Sequence record: NC_052983.1
DNA: 58,536 nt
Source of the DNA: Escherichia phage E21
Strand: one strand, 5' to 3'
Shown: piece after piece, positions 1,416 through 28,914 of the stretch
Position numbering within the stretch: the stretch's first letter is position 1
How the letters are laid out: each line of letters starts with the position of its first letter
Made by a program: the position numbers and the translations under genes
Notes under the pieces: generated by a model
The model's input: the letters and a program-made list of their open reading frames with translations, nothing else
Database searches by the model: none
What the model was told of the DNA's origin: nothing

Positions 1416-3491
1416 CTATCCTAATAGTTCACCTAAACGGCTAAAGTCTAACATCGGTCGAGGTTGAAAGGCGAATGGTTTTTCTTCCTCGGGTTCCCTG
1501 ACCATCGTATTATTATCCCATTCCTCCGCCCACGTTGGGGGGTTGTCCCAATTTATCGACTCTACTCGTAATAACTCCGGAGACGTACAAAGGCCCAAAC
1601 AGTAGTAGCTTAAGTCCCATGCTTCGTTTCGGGCTTGCGCTAAATTCTCCCAACCTTTCGCGGTTCTCGTTTCGGCGCATAGCTCCGAGAAAAATTCGTC
1701 CGGTAATTCCCTAGTCATATTATAATAGCCCTTGTGAGGCTCAATACAATCTAGTCGTCCGTTTAATGCGTCTTTCAACAAGTTCGAGTTTAAGAATAAT
1801 ACCGGGATTTCTCCTCTAGCTGCATTCTTATCGTTTTTCCGGTTAGAGTCCGGATAGCTAATACGGGTTCTCGGGTCTGTTACTCGTGTGCCACCTTTCA
1901 ATAAGATGAAGCGAGCATGTTTATTCTTTGTCTTCAAATATCGATAGAACGCGTATGCCATGCCGGTTACGCCAGATTTACCCCCGGAGTCACAACCGGT
2001 CATCTTAATTGACATCATTCTACCGCTACCGTCTGACAACGGATACTCTTTATCTATTACCTGTTTTTCGATAAGTTTCCAGTCTTCTTCGTATGTCGCC
2101 GGCTGTAAGATCATTGCGTCGCCGTCTTCGTCCTTACGCTCCGACTTGTTGATGAAGAACCGGTCTATAACATGAGTGTCATACGGTGAACCCGGGGAAA
2201 TACCGAACACCTGTACTACGAAGCTATTCAATTGAACGTCTATCGTTGCTACGAGGAATCGAACGTCATTCGGAACCATGCCTAGCGGGTAATCTGATGA
2301 CCGGCTTTTCAGTGCTTCCGGTGCGCGGACTGATTCTAACGACTTAGGCTGATACGGCTCACCCATGTTGTTATTCCAGAATTTCTTCAAGGCTTCTTCT
2401 GAGTACGTCCGTTGATATTCGTCAAGGGCATCGAGGTAGATGTTTACCAGTTTTTGCCATGTCGTAAAGGCGGCTGCCGTACCGCGGAGCCAGTAAGAAA
2501 TGAAGTCGGTATGAGGGGCTTTGCCCGTAAGTCTCCCGCTCTTATCAACTTTACAACCCTCCGGAACCCACACTCCGAATAAATTCATTTCAAAGCGTTC
2601 GTCGGGGTGGATCAAACAACCACATTCCGGGCATACCATTTGTACGGTTTCTGCTTTCTCTCGGTTAGATAGCTGTTTTCCGTTGTCCCACGTTAGATGC
2701 TCGAATTTACCCTCGAAATATTCGTCACAGTGAGGACACGGCCATTGCCAACGTCGTCTATCCCCACGGTTGTAAAGCGCAATAATACCGGTACACGGCG
2801 GAGCCTCATGCGGTGACTTAGCTATCCAGTGCGGGTCAAGAATCTCTCTCGACGGGGACGATTCGGCCATAGTCATAGCAAACGAACCAAAGGTTGTTGT
2901 ACGCTGTGTTGCCAAGTCAAATGGATTACCATCACCGCCGATATCGTCGTCCATACGGTCAAAGTCGGTCATCAATATTCTTGGAACCGGTCGTCCGGCC
3001 AATTCGGTCACGGTAGGGTATGTGATAGTTAACATCATACCTGTAATGTATTGTTTATCGAATTTATTGTCGGTGTCTCTACCTTTCAACAATTGCTCGC
3101 CGATTAGCGGGCTGTGTCGGTGAAGACGATCAATACGTCGCATAGAAAAGTCTCGGGCGGCTGCCATTGTCGGACAGAATACCATTGTATCCATCGGTGA
3201 GACTTTGATTGAGTATGACACGCCATTAATGATAATCGCGTCGGTTTTACCTGACTGTGCCGGGCCTACAAACGCCATCTTGCTGTGATTGCGCGAAGTT
3301 AATACGTCCATTGGTTCGACCATATACGGCGTTGTTGTATTCAACCACGGGCCTACATACGACCCGGGAGAATTTACATATCGATATTGAGATGCTGCAT
3401 TAGAAACGGTCAACCTTTCCGGGGGTCGTAAGTTATCCGACATCTTGACCGCGATCTCAAAGAGATTTTTGTATTTAGCCATTCTTGCCAC
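1416..3491 (-). CDS. terminase large subunit (GpA family)
   Basis: 691-aa ORF with Walker A-like GPAQSGKT, followed by W-like and portal genes in lambda order. Confidence 0.9.
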   Translation of the reverse strand: MARMAKYKNLFEIAVKMSDNLRPPERLTVSNAASQYRYVNSPGSYVGPWLNTTTPYMVEPMDVLTSRNHSKMAFVGPAQSGKTDAIIINGVSYSIKVSPMDTMVFCPTMAAARDFSMRRIDRLHRHSPLIGEQLLKGRDTDNKFDKQYITGMMLTITYPTVTELAGRPVPRILMTDFDRMDDDIGGDGNPFDLATQRTTTFGSFAMTMAESSPSREILDPHWIAKSPHEAPPCTGIIALYNRGDRRRWQWPCPHCDEYFEGKFEHLTWDNGKQLSNREKAETVQMVCPECGCLIHPDERFEMNLFGVWVPEGCKVDKSGRLTGKAPHTDFISYWLRGTAAAFTTWQKLVNIYLDALDEYQRTYSEEALKKFWNNNMGEPYQPKSLESVRAPEALKSRSSDYPLGMVPNDVRFLVATIDVQLNSFVVQVFGISPGSPYDTHVIDRFFINKSERKDEDGDAMILQPATYEEDWKLIEKQVIDKEYPLSDGSGRMMSIKMTGCDSGGKSGVTGMAYAFYRYLKTKNKHARFILLKGGTRVTDPRTRISYPDSNRKNDKNAARGEIPVLFLNSNLLKDALNGRLDCIEPHKGYYNMTRELPDEFFSELCAETRTAKGWENLAQARNEAWDLSYYCLGLCTSPELLRVESINWDNPPTWAEEWDNNTMVREPEEEKPFAFQPRPMLDFSRLGELLG

Positions 3492-4059
3492 CTACGGTAC
3501 TCTCTTTGACTTCCGTCTTAGCCCGGTCTCCGAATGCCTCAACGAGTGTTTGCGCCATCTCATTTAGCGCGCCGTCTATCATTTCCGTGATGCGGGTTCT
3601 TTGATGATCGGTGAGGGTGGATTCACGTTCCAGTGAGTCCGTTACTAAGAGTAATGACATGCGTAAGTGTTTAAAAGACTCCGACATTAGCGCTTCTACT
3701 TGGTCGGTAGGCCATAGCTCACCCTCTCTCAACTCGTAGTCCTGCTTAGCTTTCATTCCGTTCCAGAACTCTTTAGAGAGCATTTTAGGAAGCTCGTTGG
3801 GGTGCATTCGCTTAATGTAGGTTTCGACATCATACAGGGGCTTTACTAGGTATGGCGCCACTTCATTTAATTTGTAAATCGGATACCCGCCTCGTTCCCC
3901 GCAAGGAGGAACTTCTCGGATCTTGGGCGTAACGTCTCTACGCTCCATGTTAAATATCTTTGCGATCTGAGTAATGTTAACCCCGTCGAAGATCATCGAC
4001 TCGGATTCACGGTCTAGCTGATTGCTACGACGTCTTGTTGTTACCGGTGCCTTTGCCAT
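3475..4059 (-). CDS. terminase small subunit (Nu1-like, N-terminal HTH)
   Basis: 194-aa ORF directly upstream of TerL with 17-nt overlap; N-terminal region (ITQIAKIF...GERGGYPIYKLNEVAPYL) resembles Nu1 winged-HTH; true start may be the internal Met (MIFDG). Confidence 0.55.
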   Translation of the reverse strand: MAKAPVTTRRRSNQLDRESESMIFDGVNITQIAKIFNMERRDVTPKIREVPPCGERGGYPIYKLNEVAPYLVKPLYDVETYIKRMHPNELPKMLSKEFWNGMKAKQDYELREGELWPTDQVEALMSESFKHLRMSLLLVTDSLERESTLTDHQRTRITEMIDGALNEMAQTLVEAFGDRAKTEVKESTVGGKNG

Positions 4060-10790: not shown

Positions 10791-11075
10791 ATGAAAGAGA
10801 GTAATTTCCCATCGTGGGCGAAGAACAATAAAACGGGTCGACTTAAATTCATGATCCGGCATTTAGCCAGTTTCGCTTCGGAGGAGGGCCACCTAGTTTT
10901 CCTGTGCCGAGACGCTAAACTGTCGGTTCGTGGTGTCTCACAAGCAATCGACCGAGGAGAATTCACCTTTCAAATGGCGGATAAACTCGTTAAGGCTGCA
11001 AGCGTTGCTGGAAACCCGGACGTCACAGTTATGAACCTATTAAAACCTATGGAATCATTTAAAGAGGACAAATAA
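10791..11075 (+). CDS. hypothetical protein
   Basis: 94 aa; RBS AAGGAG 9 nt upstream; stop overlaps primase start (TAATG). Confidence 0.5.
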   Translation: MKESNFPSWAKNNKTGRLKFMIRHLASFASEEGHLVFLCRDAKLSVRGVSQAIDRGEFTFQMADKLVKAASVAGNPDVTVMNLLKPMESFKEDK

Positions 11076-13750
11076 TGTCTAACGTTTTCAAATCTCGTGG
11101 CCCTGAACTTTTCGACAATGGATACGAAGTCGTACCTATTACTCGTATCGACGCAACTGACAGCAAAGGGAAATTATTGTCTGGCGCGGGTAAAGCCCCG
11201 GCGTTAAAAGGGTGGCAGAAAATAGAGATCACTTCTGACATCGTTAATGAATGGGCGACGGGTAGTCGCTCTCGCTGTGGTGTGGGTATTCGTACCCACC
11301 GTAACCCTGCTGTCGATATCGACTGTTTAGACGCCGAAGCGTCAGAACACATGACGGCTTTCGTTGAGTCGGAAGTGGGCTTTGCTCCTATCCGTGTTGG
11401 GCGTGAACCTAAAGCGCTACTCCTCTATTATACAGAACGTCCTTTCACAAAAGTAAAATCAACCATCTTCGTTGATGAAAACGGGAATGAAAACGCTGTC
11501 GAGATATTAGGAAGCGGGCAACAATTCGTTGCTTACGGTATCCACCCGGGAACTAAGAAACCGTATAAATGGGTTACTAAAGGCGAGTCGCCTGCGGAAA
11601 ACCAAGCGGATTTTGACCTTGAAGAAATCACACTAGAAGACGCGAGAAAAATTATTGCGGAATTCGACCGGTATGCGAAAGAGCGCGGTTGGAAACCTTT
11701 AAAAAGTAAAAGCGGTACGGTCATCAAGCCATCTTTGGGCTACTACTTAGATGCTCCGGAAGAACTATCAGACTGGTCGGACGAGTCGGACTTTGACGAT
11801 GATGAAGACGATTGGGTCACTACTGATGATATCACCGATAAATGGGACGGTACTTACGAAGAACTTTACGAAATCTTCGAAAATGATATCGAACCATCTT
11901 ACGATTACCACACTTGGATTCCTGTTCTGGCTGCACTTAAAGACGCCGAACGTGAGCCGGACGAGTTTAAAGAGATCGCGAGAATGTGGTCTGCTCGGGC
12001 CGAGGAGTCTTTCGATAACGATGCCTTTGAAGATAAATGGGAAAACGGTAATTTCAATCGTGTTGGTAAATACGCTAAGACATTACGAGGAGTAATTGCC
12101 GAAGCGGAAAAGATCCAAGGCGTTCGCGAAATTGAGGACGTAGTTATACCTTTATTCGAAAAAGCTACTGACTTGGCCGAGTGGACTTTAGCTGCCGACC
12201 GCCTACGTGAAACGTGGGCTTTCGGTTTAGAAAGAGAGACGGCCATAAACATTGCTTGCGAAAAGTATAAGAAAGTCACTAACGGGTTAAAACTTACGGA
12301 CGTTCAAAAGAAACGATATCTTAGTATCGATTACTCTCTCTTTGACGCTCCCGAATGGTTGGCTCCTTGGGTTTATTGTACTACGGATAACGAGTTTATT
12401 AACTTAGACAATAGAACCAGAATGAACCCTAAATCTTTCGCGAATGCCTATAACCGAGAAACTGTGAAGAAATTCGGGGTAGCTGCGGACGTTTTCGCCA
12501 CGGTTGAAAGACCCGTTCCTGTTATCCACGATACGATGTATTACCCGTTGATGCACGGTGAGATGCCTAAGAACAAATGGAAGCGGGTTCCGGGTATTAA
12601 TGACAAGCGTGTTTTCGAATACAACGGTTTGACGTTCTTAAATACCTTTGACCATCGTTCCATGCCTGAGACCGCAACAAAAATTTCGACCGCTGGATAT
12701 AAGGCGATCGGGGAGGTAAAACGATACTTCGAAATACAGTATCCAGATCCAGACGAACGAAGACATGCGATGGACTGGATCGCGTGGGTTATCAATAATC
12801 CTGTTAGAAAGATTAACTATATGCTTCTCGTTCTTGGTGGTCAGGGTTCCGGTAAAACCATCGTTAAGAAGTTTATGGAACACATGCTCGGCTCTGATAA
12901 CGTCTCTACGATTTCGAATAAGGTTATCCATGGTAATTTTACCGGGTGGCAGTCTGGTCACATGCTCAAAGTTATTGAGGAAATATCGGTGAGTGGTCAT
13001 CGCTACGACGTTATGAACTCATTGAAAGAGCCGATATCGAATGAAACGTTACAGATCGAAGCGAAGTACCGTGACCCACGCCAGTGTGTGAATACTTCGT
13101 CGTATATGGCATTTACCAATGATGTTGGTGCTTTGCCTCTTACATCAAGTGACCGTCGCTTCTTGTTAGTTCGTAGTGCGTTCCAGCACAAGCGTGAAGT
13201 CACTGAATACCTACGGAAAGACCCTAATTACTTTAAACGGTTTGAGAAAGCCTTTACTAAACACGCACCGGAGATCCGCAAATGGTTTAGCGAGTGGGAG
13301 TATTCCGAGGGCTTCAAACACGATGGTAACGCTCCTGAAACGGTGAGTATGGGAAGCATGTCTTTAGCGTCAGAAGACGATTTCACCTCCGTAGTAATGG
13401 GGGCCGTAGATGATTGTGAGAAAGAGTTAGAATTTACATCGGGGATCACAGACGAAGTAATTTTCATTCCATCGGCAGTAGATTTAGTCCGAGATAGGTC
13501 TAAGGTTCCTAACGGGAAAATAATATATCGCATACTCGCTGAATATGGTTTCTTCCGGCCTGTGGATTCTCGTACACAAATAAGATTTAATGACGTAAGA
13601 GGACAAGTTGTTGTCGCGAATAGACATAAATGGCTCTATCCTGATGGGAGTGTCAACGTAGATAAGATTAAAGAGCATTTAGAGGAGAACGAACGCCGGG
13701 TAGAAGAACAAGAAAGCAAGAGAGAGTTAGAAGAAACTGACGTTTTCTAA
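11075..13750 (+). CDS. DNA primase-helicase (prim-pol-like N-terminus, P-loop D5/SF3-type C-terminus)
   Basis: 891 aa; Walker A LGGQGSGKT and Walker B-like region in C-terminal half; acidic linker; typical phage primase/helicase layout. Confidence 0.8.
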   Translation: MSNVFKSRGPELFDNGYEVVPITRIDATDSKGKLLSGAGKAPALKGWQKIEITSDIVNEWATGSRSRCGVGIRTHRNPAVDIDCLDAEASEHMTAFVESEVGFAPIRVGREPKALLLYYTERPFTKVKSTIFVDENGNENAVEILGSGQQFVAYGIHPGTKKPYKWVTKGESPAENQADFDLEEITLEDARKIIAEFDRYAKERGWKPLKSKSGTVIKPSLGYYLDAPEELSDWSDESDFDDDEDDWVTTDDITDKWDGTYEELYEIFENDIEPSYDYHTWIPVLAALKDAEREPDEFKEIARMWSARAEESFDNDAFEDKWENGNFNRVGKYAKTLRGVIAEAEKIQGVREIEDVVIPLFEKATDLAEWTLAADRLRETWAFGLERETAINIACEKYKKVTNGLKLTDVQKKRYLSIDYSLFDAPEWLAPWVYCTTDNEFINLDNRTRMNPKSFANAYNRETVKKFGVAADVFATVERPVPVIHDTMYYPLMHGEMPKNKWKRVPGINDKRVFEYNGLTFLNTFDHRSMPETATKISTAGYKAIGEVKRYFEIQYPDPDERRHAMDWIAWVINNPVRKINYMLLVLGGQGSGKTIVKKFMEHMLGSDNVSTISNKVIHGNFTGWQSGHMLKVIEEISVSGHRYDVMNSLKEPISNETLQIEAKYRDPRQCVNTSSYMAFTNDVGALPLTSSDRRFLLVRSAFQHKREVTEYLRKDPNYFKRFEKAFTKHAPEIRKWFSEWEYSEGFKHDGNAPETVSMGSMSLASEDDFTSVVMGAVDDCEKELEFTSGITDEVIFIPSAVDLVRDRSKVPNGKIIYRILAEYGFFRPVDSRTQIRFNDVRGQVVVANRHKWLYPDGSVNVDKIKEHLEENERRVEEQESKRELEETDVF

Positions 13751-13773
13751 AATATCGCGATTTTCGGTTTAAA

Positions 13774-13800
13774 GAGGTCACATTACGTGGCCTTTTTTAT
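13774..13800 (+). terminator. rho-independent terminator after primase-helicase
   Basis: AGGUCAC-AUUAC-GUGGCCU (7-bp stem, one G.U) followed by UUUUUUAUU. Confidence 0.7.
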
Positions 13801-13806
13801 TGCCCG

Positions 13807-13828
13807 AAAAACGACGCTCCCGATCGGG
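13807..13828. repeat. 21-bp box AAAAACGACG(C/T)TCCCGATCGG, copy 1 (contains perfect palindrome CCCGATCGGG)
   Basis: Repeated with one mismatch at 14787..14807; flanks the ORF-free region. Confidence 0.7.
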
Positions 13829-13854
13829 AATGCACGTTTGGTCAAAAAATGAGC

Positions 13855-13871
13855 GTACAAAATTTATACAG
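13855..13871. repeat. near-palindromic box GTACAAAATTTATACAG, copy 1
   Basis: Second copy TGTACAAATTTTATACAG at 13974..13991; half-site GTTGTACAAAAA at 14080. Confidence 0.6.
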
Positions 13872-13973
13872 AAAAACGTTCAATATTTAACCGATTTTCG
13901 GGTGATCGGATTTTTTGAGTGAATTTCCAATTTTTCATTTTTCCATTTTTTGGTCGAAAAACACCGAAAATGC

Positions 13974-13991
13974 TGTACAAATTTTATACAG
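13974..13991. repeat. near-palindromic box TGTACAAATTTTATACAG, copy 2
   Basis: Direct repeat of 13855..13871, about 120 bp apart. Confidence 0.6.
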
Positions 13992-14786
13992 GGTTTTTTG
14001 ACACAAAGTGTGTCGGTCATGTGTTCCGACGTGTGCGTGCCAGTTAACGTGTTGATTTTATTGAAAACGCATTTTTTATGTTGTACAAAAATCACCCAAC
14101 ACACATGATCGAATTACCTTTATATAGCTTATATATATATTTTTCTATTTTTCCTTTCCTATCTATTTTTTCTTTCTTCTGGAATTTCTATTTTATTATC
14201 TATTACTGTGTTTGCTGTGTCAGAAAGAAAGTAATATAGTAAAAACAATAACTTACCTTGGAACACCTATTGGAACATCAGCCGGCACAGCAATTTCCTG
14301 TGACACACCACCAGCCATGGTAATACCTAAAACGGCGCATAACTATTTGATATTATTACGGAATTACCTAAAATACCGGTCATTACGGTAAACCCGCCCT
14401 CCCGATCTACTAGCTACGCTAGACCCGAATTAATCTAATTAAATCAACGATTTGCGACGAGGGGCTATGGCAGATCCCGGACAAATTTCTGGAAGACGGC
14501 TCTGCGCACCCCCGCCCAACCGGACAACTCGTCCAAGTACCTTTTTCGATTTAAAAGTGATTCTTCTCTAGAAAGCACGGAGAGCGACGCACAGGCTTTA
14601 GCAATAGGGGACATCATCTAACACCGCGATCGCCTCGCACAATCGCACACGCTTACAATTTGAAGCACATCTAACCCACAACACCGCCCACCCGAACACC
14701 CAAACATCGAAACATCACGAAAAGCGGTTATATTTGTAAAAACGTCATGCGGTACAACCGCACACCCGAACACCCGCACAAAACGT

Positions 14787-14807
14787 AAAAACGACGTTCC
14801 CGATCGG
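14787..14807. repeat. 21-bp box AAAAACGACGTTCCCGATCGG, copy 2
   Basis: Direct repeat of 13807..13828. Confidence 0.7.
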
Positions 14808-15012
14808 CGTGTTCACCCGAGGCGCTATACCCCCGCTCAACGGATACGACCGACAAACTTAAAACCCCCTTTAAGTCGGAACAAACAAAGCGCCGTCTTC
14901 CGCCCTCAATCGAACCACACGGGCATAACTCATCGTAGGTAATACATCGGCCTTACCTAGCGGGCAAAACACGCTGAGGACGCAACACATGGCTTTACGG
15001 CAATTTTCCATA

Positions 15013-15067
15013 GGGTGGGGGGGAATGGGGGAGAGTGAGGGCTTGGGGTGGTGGTGTTGGGTGGGTA
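15013..15067 (+). other. G-run tract with G-quadruplex potential (C-rich on the transcribed minus strand)
   Basis: GGGTGGGGGGG..GGGGG..GGG..GGGG..GGTGG..GGGTGGG within 55 nt, directly 3' of the minus-strand small membrane protein gene. Confidence 0.5.
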
Positions 15068-15160
15068 GGCGCTGGCGCGACCGCATGGACAGACTGACGG
15101 CTAAGAACGAGAAAAGCCCCGCACGAATGCGAGGCCTTGGGGGTGGACTGTGTGGGACGG

Positions 15161-15400
15161 CTACCGGATTGTTAGGGCGACGCCTCCGGCGAACACCAAG
15201 ATCGCAACGCAAACCATGAAGACGACCATCATGATAGCGCCGATTGATTCGAGAACTAACGTAGTGCGGTGTAGACCGTCGAAACCGTGGTTTTGTAGGG
15301 CGCGGAAAAAGAACGAGAGAATATAAATCGAAATTAGGCCGAAGAAACACACGGCGCCCACGTTGTACACACCGGAGAGTAGCATCTTGAGAATGCTCAT
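15161..15400 (-). CDS. small membrane protein (2-3 predicted TM helices)
   Basis: Hydrophobic segments VGAVCFFGLISIYILSFFF and IGAIMMVVFMVCVAILVFAGGVAL; start set at internal ATG 15400 (ATGA overlap with upstream gene). Confidence 0.45.
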   Translation of the reverse strand: MSILKMLLSGVYNVGAVCFFGLISIYILSFFFRALQNHGFDGLHRTTLVLESIGAIMMVVFMVCVAILVFAGGVALTIR

Positions 15401-15975
15401 TTTCGACCGCCTCGTGCTTTTCGTTCTGCGATTATGTCTTTCTGGCAATAGTCGCTGAGTTGTTCCCAGTCGTCGGGGATCTCGACGTAATCGCCACCGT
15501 CTAGGCGGGAGGACATCAACGACTCAGAAAAGTAAATCCGCTCATTGGTTCGCACGTTCACGTACTCCGCAAACATTCCGCGAGGGTGTTCTGTCCCACT
15601 TCGTTGTAACGTTGCCCCCGTGTGTGCGATGGGGTCTTTTCCATTTTTGACGTAGACTAGCGCAGGGAATTTAAAACGGTCTTCCTGATCCTGAGTTTGT
15701 TCGTCCTCCTCGAACTTTACGCCACAGAACGGGCAATAATTCATAAACACAGGAAAATCAGATTTTGTTACCGTCGAGTAGAGCGTCCCGTCCGGTCTAC
15801 GCTCTTGATACTCTATGGTGAAGTCTAGAAAATATCGGGTTTTCAACTTTTTATTTTCAATAGCTAACACTTCTGTTTTCCACTCCGCCGAGTGTATTAT
15901 TGCGCCGTTCGGCAACTTACCGGCCACCCGATCAGCCATCGATTTTTGAATACGATCGAAACAGTTACAACTCAT
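15397..15975 (-). CDS. hypothetical protein with CxC...CPFC cysteine pairs
   Basis: 192-aa ORF, no antisense competitor of similar length. Confidence 0.5.
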   Translation of the reverse strand: MSCNCFDRIQKSMADRVAGKLPNGAIIHSAEWKTEVLAIENKKLKTRYFLDFTIEYQERRPDGTLYSTVTKSDFPVFMNYCPFCGVKFEEDEQTQDQEDRFKFPALVYVKNGKDPIAHTGATLQRSGTEHPRGMFAEYVNVRTNERIYFSESLMSSRLDGGDYVEIPDDWEQLSDYCQKDIIAERKARGGRK

Positions 15976-16184
15976 AATAATTGACTCCTAACAGACGAGT
16001 AGATGACGAAACACGCGCCCACCATCACAAAGGTGATTCCGGCTAAACTTACAGCGCGTAATTTCTCAAAGGTTTCGCTTCGGGTCGCTTTGTTCGTCCC
16101 CACGATACACAGGACAGCCACGCCGAACCCTAACACCATCAAAACGACACCGAGACAAAACGGCCAAGCGTTGATTATTTCCAT
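15972..16184 (-). CDS. small membrane protein (2 TM)
   Basis: 70 aa, two hydrophobic helices; ATGA overlap with downstream gene. Confidence 0.45.
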   Translation of the reverse strand: MEIINAWPFCLGVVLMVLGFGVAVLCIVGTNKATRSETFEKLRAVSLAGITFVMVGACFVIYSSVRSQLL

Positions 16185-17898: not shown

Positions 17899-18120
17899 TT
17901 ACCGTGTGAGCATCGTAACCACGGATTTTTTAACCATTTCCAAGGAATCCCCGCCAAGGCTCACACCTTGCCCGCAGAAAGTCCACGGCTTGAGGTGGTG
18001 TGGTGTCTTGGCAATCGTCCCGATCCATACACCGCCCGCAACAACGTAATAAATATTTTCGCCTCGCTCTTGGTAAATCTCGATCGTCTTATCCAAGGTT
18101 GGATTATTTACCGGCTTCAT
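17899..18120 (-). CDS. hypothetical protein
   Basis: Track ORF 17899..18174 trimmed to internal Met (MKPVNN) to limit overlap with upstream gene. Confidence 0.35.
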   Translation of the reverse strand: MKPVNNPTLDKTIEIYQERGENIYYVVAGGVWIGTIAKTPHHLKPWTFCGQGVSLGGDSLEMVKKSVVTMLTR

Positions 18121-18754
18121 TTTCTCCCCCTTTAATCTTAACGAGTTCTTGCTTGTACTCGGATCCGAGCACATAATTTTTATTTTCTTCCTTGGGATAA
18201 GGCAATACCGGATATCGAAGCAACTTTTTATACTTCTTCACGACCGAACGGCTCCCCGTAAAATAAACGTAACGATGCTTAGATGTTCTGACTTGTCGAT
18301 ACGTCTTGCTTTCCTTTCCTTGATAATGCCGAGAGTGTTTACCTTGCTCCGTGTATTTATCGGTGCGCGCTTTCGTCGCCCCCGTGTAGATGAAATTAGA
18401 CGCTTGATAAATATATCCGTTGTGGTTCATACCGCGATCCGCATACGACACGATGACAAGGTTTTCACTTTTCAACTCAGCCATAGCGAAGGCGATCAAC
18501 TGCGACGGAGCGTTACGGATTGGACGAATAAAACAAAGTCGGTTTAACTCAAAAACGTGGCTTTTGTACTCCTCGCCCAATATTCCAACACATAGCGGGT
18601 TGCTGGCCGGCTTACCGATAGTTAGAACCCCGACAAGCTCCTCGTCTTCGAAGAACCCGAAAGCGTAAGATATGCTAGGTCGACGTTTCGCATAATGGTA
18701 GTTTAGGATTATGTCTAAACAGTCTTTAGGATCAACGCGTCTCATCGTGTACAC
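18104..18754 (-). CDS. hypothetical protein with GNAT-like C-terminal motif (possible acyltransferase / Mom-like)
   Basis: 216 aa; ...IVSYADRGMNHNGYIYQASNFIYTG resembles GNAT motif B; assignment is tentative. Confidence 0.45.
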   Translation of the reverse strand: MYTMRRVDPKDCLDIILNYHYAKRRPSISYAFGFFEDEELVGVLTIGKPASNPLCVGILGEEYKSHVFELNRLCFIRPIRNAPSQLIAFAMAELKSENLVIVSYADRGMNHNGYIYQASNFIYTGATKARTDKYTEQGKHSRHYQGKESKTYRQVRTSKHRYVYFTGSRSVVKKYKKLLRYPVLPYPKEENKNYVLGSEYKQELVKIKGGENEAGK

Positions 18755-27552: not shown

Positions 27553-28177
27553 GTTAGATGAAGTACGCAAATTATCATACTCGTTCAAACTGCCCGAAGA
27601 TGTCCGAGAGGGAACCTATGTAGTTTTACGCTTCGAATCTGAGGTAGGAAAGTGGTATCAGAACGCAAATATTGTTAGCTATATGCTCGGTGTTATCAGC
27701 CACACTACTAAGACACAATTCCAAGTTTCTTGTGAGGGTTTATCCTCCCCGATGCGTTTCGGGCGCGATGGCGGTATCCGCGCAGACAGCAAGGGACAAG
27801 TTGGTGGCGCACTAAGAACGTCAGTATTCCTTGCCGGTAGTGCAGATACCGCAGAAGAATACATCAAGGGCCAAGTAGAACAACACAACGACCCCGAAGT
27901 AGTAAGACGCGAGCCAACGTTCCACTTAAAAAATGCTGACGATTTGATAGGTATCATCGTCAAGCTGGACAAGCTGATAAACGATGCGACAACGCTATGG
28001 GGCGCAATACCTGAAAAATGGAAAGGCCGAGAGCAACGACGTAGCCGAAACGACCGAATACCGCATGATATGTTAGTAGCGATCTTGTGTAATCCGGACG
28101 CATCGGACATATTAGCAGACCTATTTAAGTCCATAGCTAAAGCATTCGGAGTATCAACCAAAAAAGAGGAAGAATGA
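27545..28177 (+). CDS. hypothetical protein
   Basis: 210-aa ORF. Confidence 0.5.
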   Translation: MTKLDEVRKLSYSFKLPEDVREGTYVVLRFESEVGKWYQNANIVSYMLGVISHTTKTQFQVSCEGLSSPMRFGRDGGIRADSKGQVGGALRTSVFLAGSADTAEEYIKGQVEQHNDPEVVRREPTFHLKNADDLIGIIVKLDKLINDATTLWGAIPEKWKGREQRRSRNDRIPHDMLVAILCNPDASDILADLFKSIAKAFGVSTKKEEE

Positions 28178-28914
28178 TGATCAATCCCTACGCGGTGGAA
28201 TTACAGAAATTGAAAGACGCCAAGAAACACATTCCAAAGCAGATAAAAGACCAATGGCGTACTCCGGACTGGCTTTTCTACGCGCTAAACTCTTTATACG
28301 GCCCGTTCTTGGTAGATTTGTTTTCAGATGGACAGAATGCTAAGTGCTCCCGGTATTTCATGGCCGAGGATAATGCGCTACAACAGAACTGGAAAGAAGC
28401 ACTAGAAGACGCCAAGTTTGAATTCCTTATCGATGCAGACTGTGCGGGGTACGATGCTACTGACGATCTAAAGACGGCCAAGTGTTTTGCTAACCCGCCA
28501 TACAGCCCGGCTAAGTATATCGGTAAAGGGCGTAAGAATAGAATACCGCTCTGTGGTATGCGAAATATCATGGCTAAGGCCTACGAGGAACACAAGGCCG
28601 GTTGCCCTTCATTCTGGTTGCTTAAATCCGCCACGTCAGAAGATTGGTGGCCTAACGAGACCGCAAGCCAGATAATCCACATCAAGGGTAGAATTGCTTT
28701 CGAGAAACCGGTGTGGTTTAGAGATGAGGTCGTAGACCGCGTGGAAAGTAGTGCTGCTTTCGGTGCGTCCGTTGCTATTTTTAACGGAATAAACGATATT
28801 CAAGAACCGGAAGCCTACATCAGTCGAGATACCTTAAAATTAATAGGGGAGCCACTTGCTGAAATTAATGCGGAAAGACGCGCCGAGTGGATAGCTAGTT
28901 TCGACGATCTATAA
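28174..28914 (+). CDS. phage-type DNA N6-adenine methyltransferase
   Basis: N-terminal WRTPDWLF and catalytic-type FANPPY motifs typical of the phage Dam family; RBS GAGGAAGA. Confidence 0.7.
   Translation: MMINPYAVELQKLKDAKKHIPKQIKDQWRTPDWLFYALNSLYGPFLVDLFSDGQNAKCSRYFMAEDNALQQNWKEALEDAKFEFLIDADCAGYDATDDLKTAKCFANPPYSPAKYIGKGRKNRIPLCGMRNIMAKAYEEHKAGCPSFWLLKSATSEDWWPNETASQIIHIKGRIAFEKPVWFRDEVVDRVESSAAFGASVAIFNGINDIQEPEAYISRDTLKLIGEPLAEINAERRAEWIASFDDL

Follow-up and report, generated by a model that had tools for sequence, protein, structure and literature searches.

Two near-identical, palindrome-containing direct repeats bracket ~1 kb of DNA just beyond the primase gene in the 58,536-nucleotide stretch analysed here (the window), raising the question of whether they are protein-binding sites, recombination sites, or the boundaries of an inserted segment. 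The window is a Chi-like Proteus siphophage of the genus Lavrentievavirus (family Casjensviridae), with 94 to 96% identity to pPM_01, P-07, PM87, and others. Chi-like phages are common and are in development against Proteus, Salmonella, and Klebsiella; their layout is odd in that the terminase genes lie >10 kb from cos, and to our knowledge no study has dissected the substructure of that cos region.

A repeated 21-mer in a gene-free gap

The left copy, AAAAACGACGCTCCCGATCGG, occupies positions 13807-13827 and the right copy, AAAAACGACGTTCCCGATCGG, positions 14787-14807, both read on the plus strand; they are identical at 20 of 21 positions, the sole mismatch being C/T at position 11. The next base is G on the left and C on the right, which limits the shared unit to 21 nt rather than 22. 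When both strands of the 58.5 kb were searched with up to three mismatches, only these two sites were found, with 0.00 expected from 100 dinucleotide shuffles, and the repeats are thus as real as originally predicted. Each copy contains one GATC, and both include a nonpalindromic half, AAAAACGACGY, in direct orientation. The accompanying claim of a GATC-containing palindrome in each copy stands with a qualification as to length: the left copy includes a perfect 12-bp palindrome, TCCCGATCGGGA, at 13818-13829, and the right copy has only the 8-bp CCGATCGG at 14800-14807. A partial third copy at 14390-14407 (78%) is lost in most relatives, and we dropped it from the system for this lack of conservation.

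What the repeats bracket is the central part of a gene-free gap of ~1.4 kb that is closed by convergent terminators. The gap runs from the stop of a primase-helicase gene (11075-13750, plus strand; Pfam Prim-Pol, PriCT_2, and DUF5906) to a small minus-strand gene at ~15161-15398. Reading of the sequence places a terminator for the primase gene, a hairpin followed by a T-run (13776-13800, plus strand; −12.8 kcal/mol), immediately upstream of the left 21-mer, which starts 7 bp past it and 57 bp downstream of the primase-helicase gene; this terminator is kept in the sister phages Kokobel1 (Providencia) and Saba (Proteus). At the right edge of the gap, the minus-strand operon ends in a terminator with an 11-pair stem and a T-rich tail (15113-15138, minus strand). 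We rejected the presence of hidden genes, as none of seven ORFs within the gap has a PHROG match and indels in the alignment of relatives are not multiples of three. An Rfam scan by E-value of positions 13000-16000 gave no match, a sigma-70 promoter scan gave three sites versus 3.1 expected, with the repeats themselves free of such sites, and covariation gave no support to a consensus RNA fold of islands conserved in the right part of the gap.

The cohesive-end site between the repeats

The 12-nt cohesive end 5′-GGTGCGCAGAGC was determined for Chi (PMC4342425) and has been found in Proteus Chi-like phages (PMC9022528). The window has a single occurrence of its reverse complement, at 14499-14510, which we annotate as cosN (GCTCTGCGCACC, on the minus strand, which reads 5′-GGTGCGCAGAGC). 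The record of phage NotEvenPhaged ends exactly at this site, and ~50 bp on each side of it are conserved as far as Chi, the distant genera keeping only that part. PM87-type records end near 14520-14577, but we rejected these as physical ends, since they are overlapping assembly breakpoints. The left 21-mer starts 692 bp to the left of cosN and the right 21-mer 277 bp to its right, and with cosN between the repeats the 1-kb segment forms the core of the cos region. When the flanks to the left and right of cosN were compared, they gave a direct match scoring 18, against a maximum of 13 in the block-shuffled null (0/100).

The two arms of this region differ in character. The left arm contains a tract of 23 to 25% GC at 14050-14270, flanked by lineage-specific repeats that include two copies of the near-palindromic GTACAAAWTTTATACAG. 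It also contains three matches to the IHF consensus WATCAANNNNTTR, at 14045-14057, 14340-14352, and 14442-14454; as consensus matches only, these are three of the five in the whole window, and all three lie within 460 bp to the left of cosN. Kokobel1 and Chi also have IHF-consensus matches at positions −57 and approximately −156. Across the right arm the sequence is first strongly C/A-rich and then G-rich, and its strand-asymmetric repeats dominate the local GC skew. Arrays of the C/A-rich units ACCGCCCACCCGAACACCC and ACCGCACACCCGAACACCC with a period of ~8 bp (14683-14780, plus strand) lead into the right 21-mer, and similar arrays are found in Kokobel1. A second GATC-containing element, CACCGCGATCGCCTCGCA (14622-14639, plus strand), lies ~112 bp to the right of cosN, and Kokobel1 has CACCTCGATCGCCTCG at the equivalent position; Chi has it in part, as CCACGATCGACC.

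We aligned nine genomes and extracted the contexts of the sites from four more. Every Lavrentievavirus genome checked retains the copies (n = 11 for the left copy and n = 13 for the right). The left copy is identical in 10 of the 11, with RP6 carrying CCAGATC, a single substitution that breaks the left palindrome. On the right, the core CGACGTTCCCGATCGG is invariant in all 13 genomes and the A-run alone varies, with AAAAATG in E21 and one A fewer in P16-2532. The C/T difference between the left and right copies is fixed in all genomes. These close relatives are 93 to 97% identical within the gap, and the conservation of 21 nt is thus weak evidence of constraint; by our own estimate, finding 0 of 21 variable columns in the right copy has a P of ~0.08. 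The only deletion seen is in Isf-Pm1, which lacks 14410-14586 with cosN included. This looks like an artificial join or assembly artefact, of the kind that Hendrix et al. describe in the Chi record JX094499 (PMC4342425).

The order primase, gap, cosN, gap, and minus-strand genes is common to Kokobel1, Saba, Chi, and JC01, and a core, TCCCGATC(C/G)GC, recurs near cos in the two sister genera represented by Kokobel1 and Saba. Kokobel1 has three copies to the right of cos, at +232, +266, and +290, the first of which, AAAAACGGCCTTCCCGATCCGC, agrees with the right copy of the window at 19 of 22 positions by hand count. Its left site lies just past the primase terminator, at the same place as the left copy of the window, and lacks the AAAAACGACG part; here a C-to-G change at position 3 is paired with a G-to-C change at position 10, so that a palindrome, TCGCGATCGCGA, is kept. 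Saba also has three copies on the right, at +224, +257, and +333, and a single inverted copy on the left at −620, whereas the window has one copy on each side in direct orientation. The inverted left copy of Saba matches its right copy at 14 of 14 nt (−620/+224; score 14, 0/100), at distances close to the −692 and +277 of the window. Genome-wide, TCCCGATCSG is confined to the cos-flanking sites in both the window and Saba.

A rule by which the same motif would stand on both sides of cos throughout the family was considered and rejected, as the left and right flanks do not match significantly in Kokobel1, Chi, JC01, or eight further cos-spanning Chi-like contigs. Significance is reached only by the direct pair of this genus and the inverted pair of Saba, and a matched pair is therefore not a family-wide requirement. 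Each genus examined does, however, have its own repeated motif at +220 to +430 to the right of cos, with four copies of ACGCACGCCGCGTATATCA in Chi and two of TGAYACATCCGAAGTGT in JC01. A conserved position with a lineage-specific sequence is as expected if specificity sites co-evolve with the protein that binds them. Wider searches added little to this set: an IMG/VR scan for the 21-mer gave no match, and a scan of 596 Gb of genome contigs with AAAAACGNCNYTCCCGATC returned scattered single matches in unrelated bacteria, at the level expected by chance for 16 fixed bases. Among relatives of the primase, IMG/VR yielded Kokobel1 and Saba only, and a metagenome search found only four distant contigs, three of which end between a few hundred bp and ~0.7 kb past the primase gene.

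Alternative explanations for the repeats

Direct repeats ~1 kb apart around a gene-poor interior could be recombination sites, target-site duplications, or the edges of a mobile ~1-kb insert, as the original prediction also proposed. However, this interior includes cosN with its conserved flanks, which are essential and common to Chi, and it contains no recombinase and no ORF with a family match. The segment is present and syntenic in every relative examined, other genera included; we found no presence/absence polymorphism in the 27 related records that a search returned or in our alignments with three sister or distant genera, and both flanks align across genera straight through the repeat positions, with no genome examined showing a boundary there. 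An origin by insertion or recombination is thus extremely improbable. It is also very unlikely that the 21-mers act as weak minus-strand terminators, each a short hairpin that leads into CGTCGTTTTT and would block read-through of cos. A terminator scan does weakly flag the left copy on the minus strand (TTCCCGATCGGGAG plus CGTCGTTTTT), as well as another hairpin with a T-run 26 nt downstream from the right copy, and folding with flanks included gives −8.2 and −7.3 kcal/mol. The stems, however, have only 3 to 5 pairs and stand 5 nt from the T-run, the right copy itself is unflagged, and the minus-strand operon already has its strong terminator at 15113-15138; moreover, the Kokobel1 and Saba copies have no T-run, which in itself makes this reading unlikely.

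Two other explanations deserve more weight, although we consider each of them unlikely. By analogy with oriC-type origins or with phage P4, the 21-mers might be replication-origin or replication-control sites for the Prim-Pol/helicase or another initiator. The left copy lies just past the primase-helicase gene, the 23 to 25% GC tract would also suit an origin, with lineage-specific repeats such as the paired GTACAAAWTTTATACAG beside it and three IHF-consensus sites, and the phage encodes a Dam methyltransferase that could act on the GATC at the center of each site. The alpha primase-helicase of satellite phage P4 binds two iteron clusters that lie apart, ori and crr, and the likeness extends to two separated copies of a motif by a primase-helicase gene, with repeats of ~8-bp period nearby. 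Unlike in P4, the two sites here straddle cos, and the P4 iteron octamer TGTTCACC is not conserved, occurring once, beside the right copy, and reading TGTACACC in most relatives; the helicase domain here is DUF5906/VapE-like. Between the AT-rich tract and the right copy, or the Kokobel1 and Saba clusters, lie cosN and 500 to 700 bp, and on the infecting linear DNA these right-hand sites would be at the opposite end. An origin is not known to have been mapped in any Chi-like phage, and the local GC skew is dominated by the strand-asymmetric repeats.

The other explanation, to which we give about the same weight, is that the extended identity over 21 nt is itself functionless: a short GATC palindrome might be bound by some factor or might be neutral, and the longer match would reflect lineage-specific copying that has yet to decay, through templated repair, or gene conversion, at short homologies within concatemers. 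Consistent with this, the extra shared flank differs by lineage, being AAAAACGACG on the 5′ side here and CAGTAG on the 3′ side in Saba, and the former is the part absent from the Kokobel1 left site. The variable A-run (E21 and P16-2532) and the broken left palindrome of RP6 point the same way, and at 93 to 97% identity the genus is too shallow to reveal purifying selection. Against it, left-right matches have arisen independently in two genera at similar distances from cosN, both at 0/100, which drift is unlikely to produce, and the core is restricted genome-wide to the cos region in the window and in Saba. The fixation of the C/T difference in all genomes also implies that any copying event was not very recent. 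Should the sites prove functionless, the finding would amount to a correct annotation of the cos region.

Putative accessory sites for terminase

We tentatively favor a reading in which the 21-mers belong to an extended cos region and serve it as accessory protein-binding sites, the probable binder being the small terminase subunit, with possible sensitivity to Dam methylation. Of the functions originally proposed, protein binding is the one that survives, and it is strengthened by the recurrence of the GATC core beside cos in two sister genera and by the compensated palindrome of Kokobel1. In this model, the 21-mers would be the left and right members of a family of GATC-centered recognition sites with the core YCSCGATCSGC, lying within an extended, untranscribed cos region of ~1.3 kb (roughly 13800 to 15110), and cosN would be the site of the staggered cut at which terminase makes the 12-nt cohesive ends. 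A sequence-specific DNA-binding protein would occupy sites flanking cosN, IHF-type bends within the left arm could fold the distant left site back towards cosN, and the resulting nucleoprotein complex would help terminase to find and cut cos at the start of packaging, at its end, or both. Protein binding, the identity of the binder, looping, and any role of methylation at the 21-mers are features that we infer only.

The terminase of the window is lambda-type, with a GpA-type large subunit (1416-3482; GpA ATPase and nuclease domains) adjoining the small subunit (3475-4059, minus strand). The latter is assigned by matches to PF07278 (DUF1441; 1e-15) and to phrog_141, "terminase small subunit" (2e-57); DUF1441 is its only Pfam match, and it does not belong to the Nu1 family. 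A PDB sequence search for relatives of this protein was empty, and a single-sequence AlphaFold model (pLDDT 51) has an order of N-terminal helices and strands that is compatible with a winged helix and is unreliable. In cos phages, the small terminase subunit marks viral DNA for the large subunit, and in lambda-type systems it recognizes lineage-specific repeats next to cosN, assisted by IHF. This precedent, together with the N15 accessory site described below and the zone of position-conserved, lineage-specific motifs, makes the small subunit the most economical candidate for the binder. Our confidence is limited by the large distances from cosN, the single right copy in the genus, the restricted spread of the matched pair, and the DUF1441 rather than Nu1 affiliation of the small subunit.

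Comparison with the lambda cos site (cosQ-cosN-cosB, with its R sites and I1) brings out both sides of this argument. The two are alike in the 12-nt 5′ cohesive-end cut, a GpA-type large terminase subunit whose gene adjoins that of the small subunit, the short repeated sites close to the cut, which vary from one related phage to another, and the IHF-consensus sites on the arm facing the terminase genes. They differ in scale, as the whole lambda site spans ~200 bp and the 21-mers lie 692 bp and 277 bp from the cut, and in gene order, as the terminase genes adjoin cos in lambda and are ~10 kb away here, an arrangement that Hendrix et al. also noted for Chi (PMC4342425). The small subunit is Nu1 in lambda and a DUF1441 protein here, and in the window the same motif, with GATC at the center of each site, stands on both sides of the cut. 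In N15, rR2 is a second, inverted copy of the binding site ~200 bp away that has an accessory role (PMC4669245); the distant second copy of the window and the inverted copy of Saba resemble it. The 21-mers are most likely a further example of such accessory recognition sites around a phage packaging cut.

The original prediction tied the embedded GATC to a phage-encoded Dam-family methyltransferase, and that gene is present, as an N6-adenine methyltransferase encoded at 28174-28914 on the plus strand (PF05869, 9e-30; phrog_111). GATC is neither enriched nor depleted genome-wide (215 sites versus 226 expected), and its seven sites in the gap are close to the genome density; enrichment of GATC or CGATC was therefore rejected as an explanation of the repeats. 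With GATC at the center of every site and a Dam of the phage's own, binding may depend on methylation state, and we regard a link between Dam methylation and the 21-mers as possible. P1 pac provides a parallel, with seven TGATCA/G Dam sites flanking the cleavage point together with IHF, and methylation controlling both binding and cutting (PMC10028697, its references 34-36). IHF is also used by lambda cos (PMC4669245), as it is by P1 pac (PMC10028697). P1 pac and the window share GATC repeats on both sides of the terminase cut, IHF-consensus sites nearby, and a phage-encoded Dam. They are unlike in that P1 packages by headful from pac and the window has cos; in that P1 has seven hexamers within 161 bp, compared with one site per side ~1 kb apart here; and in that the motif here is longer and different, is present as three sites on one side in the sister genera, and belongs to a genome in which GATC is not enriched overall.

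If the 21-mers are sites for terminase or an accessory factor, they would define the packaging specificity of the clade, and could find use in cosmid-type transducing vectors, in predicting cross-packaging, and in testing control of packaging by the phage Dam. More speculatively, and with a probability that we would put well below that of the accessory sites themselves, the GATC sites on both cos arms might form a Dam-gated, long-range packaging switch, bound by terminase or an accessory factor in one methylation state only, with IHF bends folding ~1 kb so that the left and right sites clamp cosN. Such a switch would couple cos cutting to replication or to the methylation status of concatemers, and would be evolving within a Morganellaceae-infecting clade of Chi-like phages; we know of no description of P1-pac-like methylation control in a cos phage. 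With cosN now placed in the window, the surrounding 1.3 kb can be described as conserved, untranscribed, repeat-rich, and rich in IHF-consensus sites, with named candidates for its recognition elements. GATC itself is kept in all of the motif copies listed here from the three genera, including the RP6 variant in which the left palindrome is broken.

Sequence elements on the left side of cosN

Among the five IHF-consensus matches in the window, three (14045-14057, 14340-14352, and 14442-14454) are grouped within 460 bp of the 12-nt cohesive-end site cosN (14499-14510), all on its left side, and the positions at -57 and about -156 are found again in the sister-genus Providencia phage Kokobel1 and in the more distantly related Chi. 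Because this cluster is one-sided and its positions recur in these two phages, we suggest that the bent, cosB-like arm is the one toward the primase and terminase genes.

The same side carries two near-palindromic GTACAAAWTTTATACAG repeats (13855-13871 and 13975-13991) spaced 120 bp apart, together with a partial third copy at 14081-14092. Kokobel1 and the Proteus phage Saba, which represent sister genera, have CTGTAC-type counterparts, and the equivalent place in Chi holds two palindromes (TATAACAAATTTGTTAT) upstream of gp1, a small HTH gene that is missing from Lavrentievavirus, the genus of the window. The GTACAAAWTTTATACAG repeats may be operators or origin repeats.

Conserved and variable segments of the right arm

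On the right side, a GATC element (CACCGCGATCGCCTCGCA, 14622-14639) lies ~112 bp from cosN, and its position is kept in Kokobel1 and partly in Chi. Farther right, non-coding islands within 14857-15090 (a CTTAAAACCCCCTTTAAG hairpin, GGTAATACATCGG..CCTAGCG, and CGCTGGCGCGACCGCATGG) are kept across three genera; the stretch that holds them is C/A-rich and then G-rich, and when the islands were folded as a consensus RNA, no covariation backed the structure. Relatives differ in the length of a G-run at ~15016-15024, and both pPM_01 and P2-71 have a 40-bp insertion at ~15110 in window coordinates.

The octamer TGTTCACC (14810-14817), the type I iteron octamer of phage P4, adjoins the right copy (14787-14807) of the 21-nt repeat pair around cosN. 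Most relatives have TGTACACC in its place, and we regard the match as a coincidence.

Record ends, host labels, and DNA-modification genes

Isf-Pm1, whose record was deposited as circular, is missing 177 bp that include cosN (window 14410-14586), probably because the cohesive ends were joined artificially; a comparable join has been described in the Chi record JX094499 (Hendrix et al., PMC4342425). PM87-type records start 10-60 bp to the right of cosN, with a terminal overlap of ~50 bp.

Genomes that share 93-97% identity with these Proteus phages have been filed as phages of Staphylococcus, Enterococcus, Pseudomonas, Klebsiella, and Salmonella, and the host labels of these records (SVV09-A, AS-M1_NWU, E21, and SD-11 to SD-14) look doubtful.

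The window also codes for a Mom-family DNA-modification gene (18104-18754; PF25680 at 2e-35) as well as the Dam gene (28174-28914), and the phage may therefore carry two adenine modifications.
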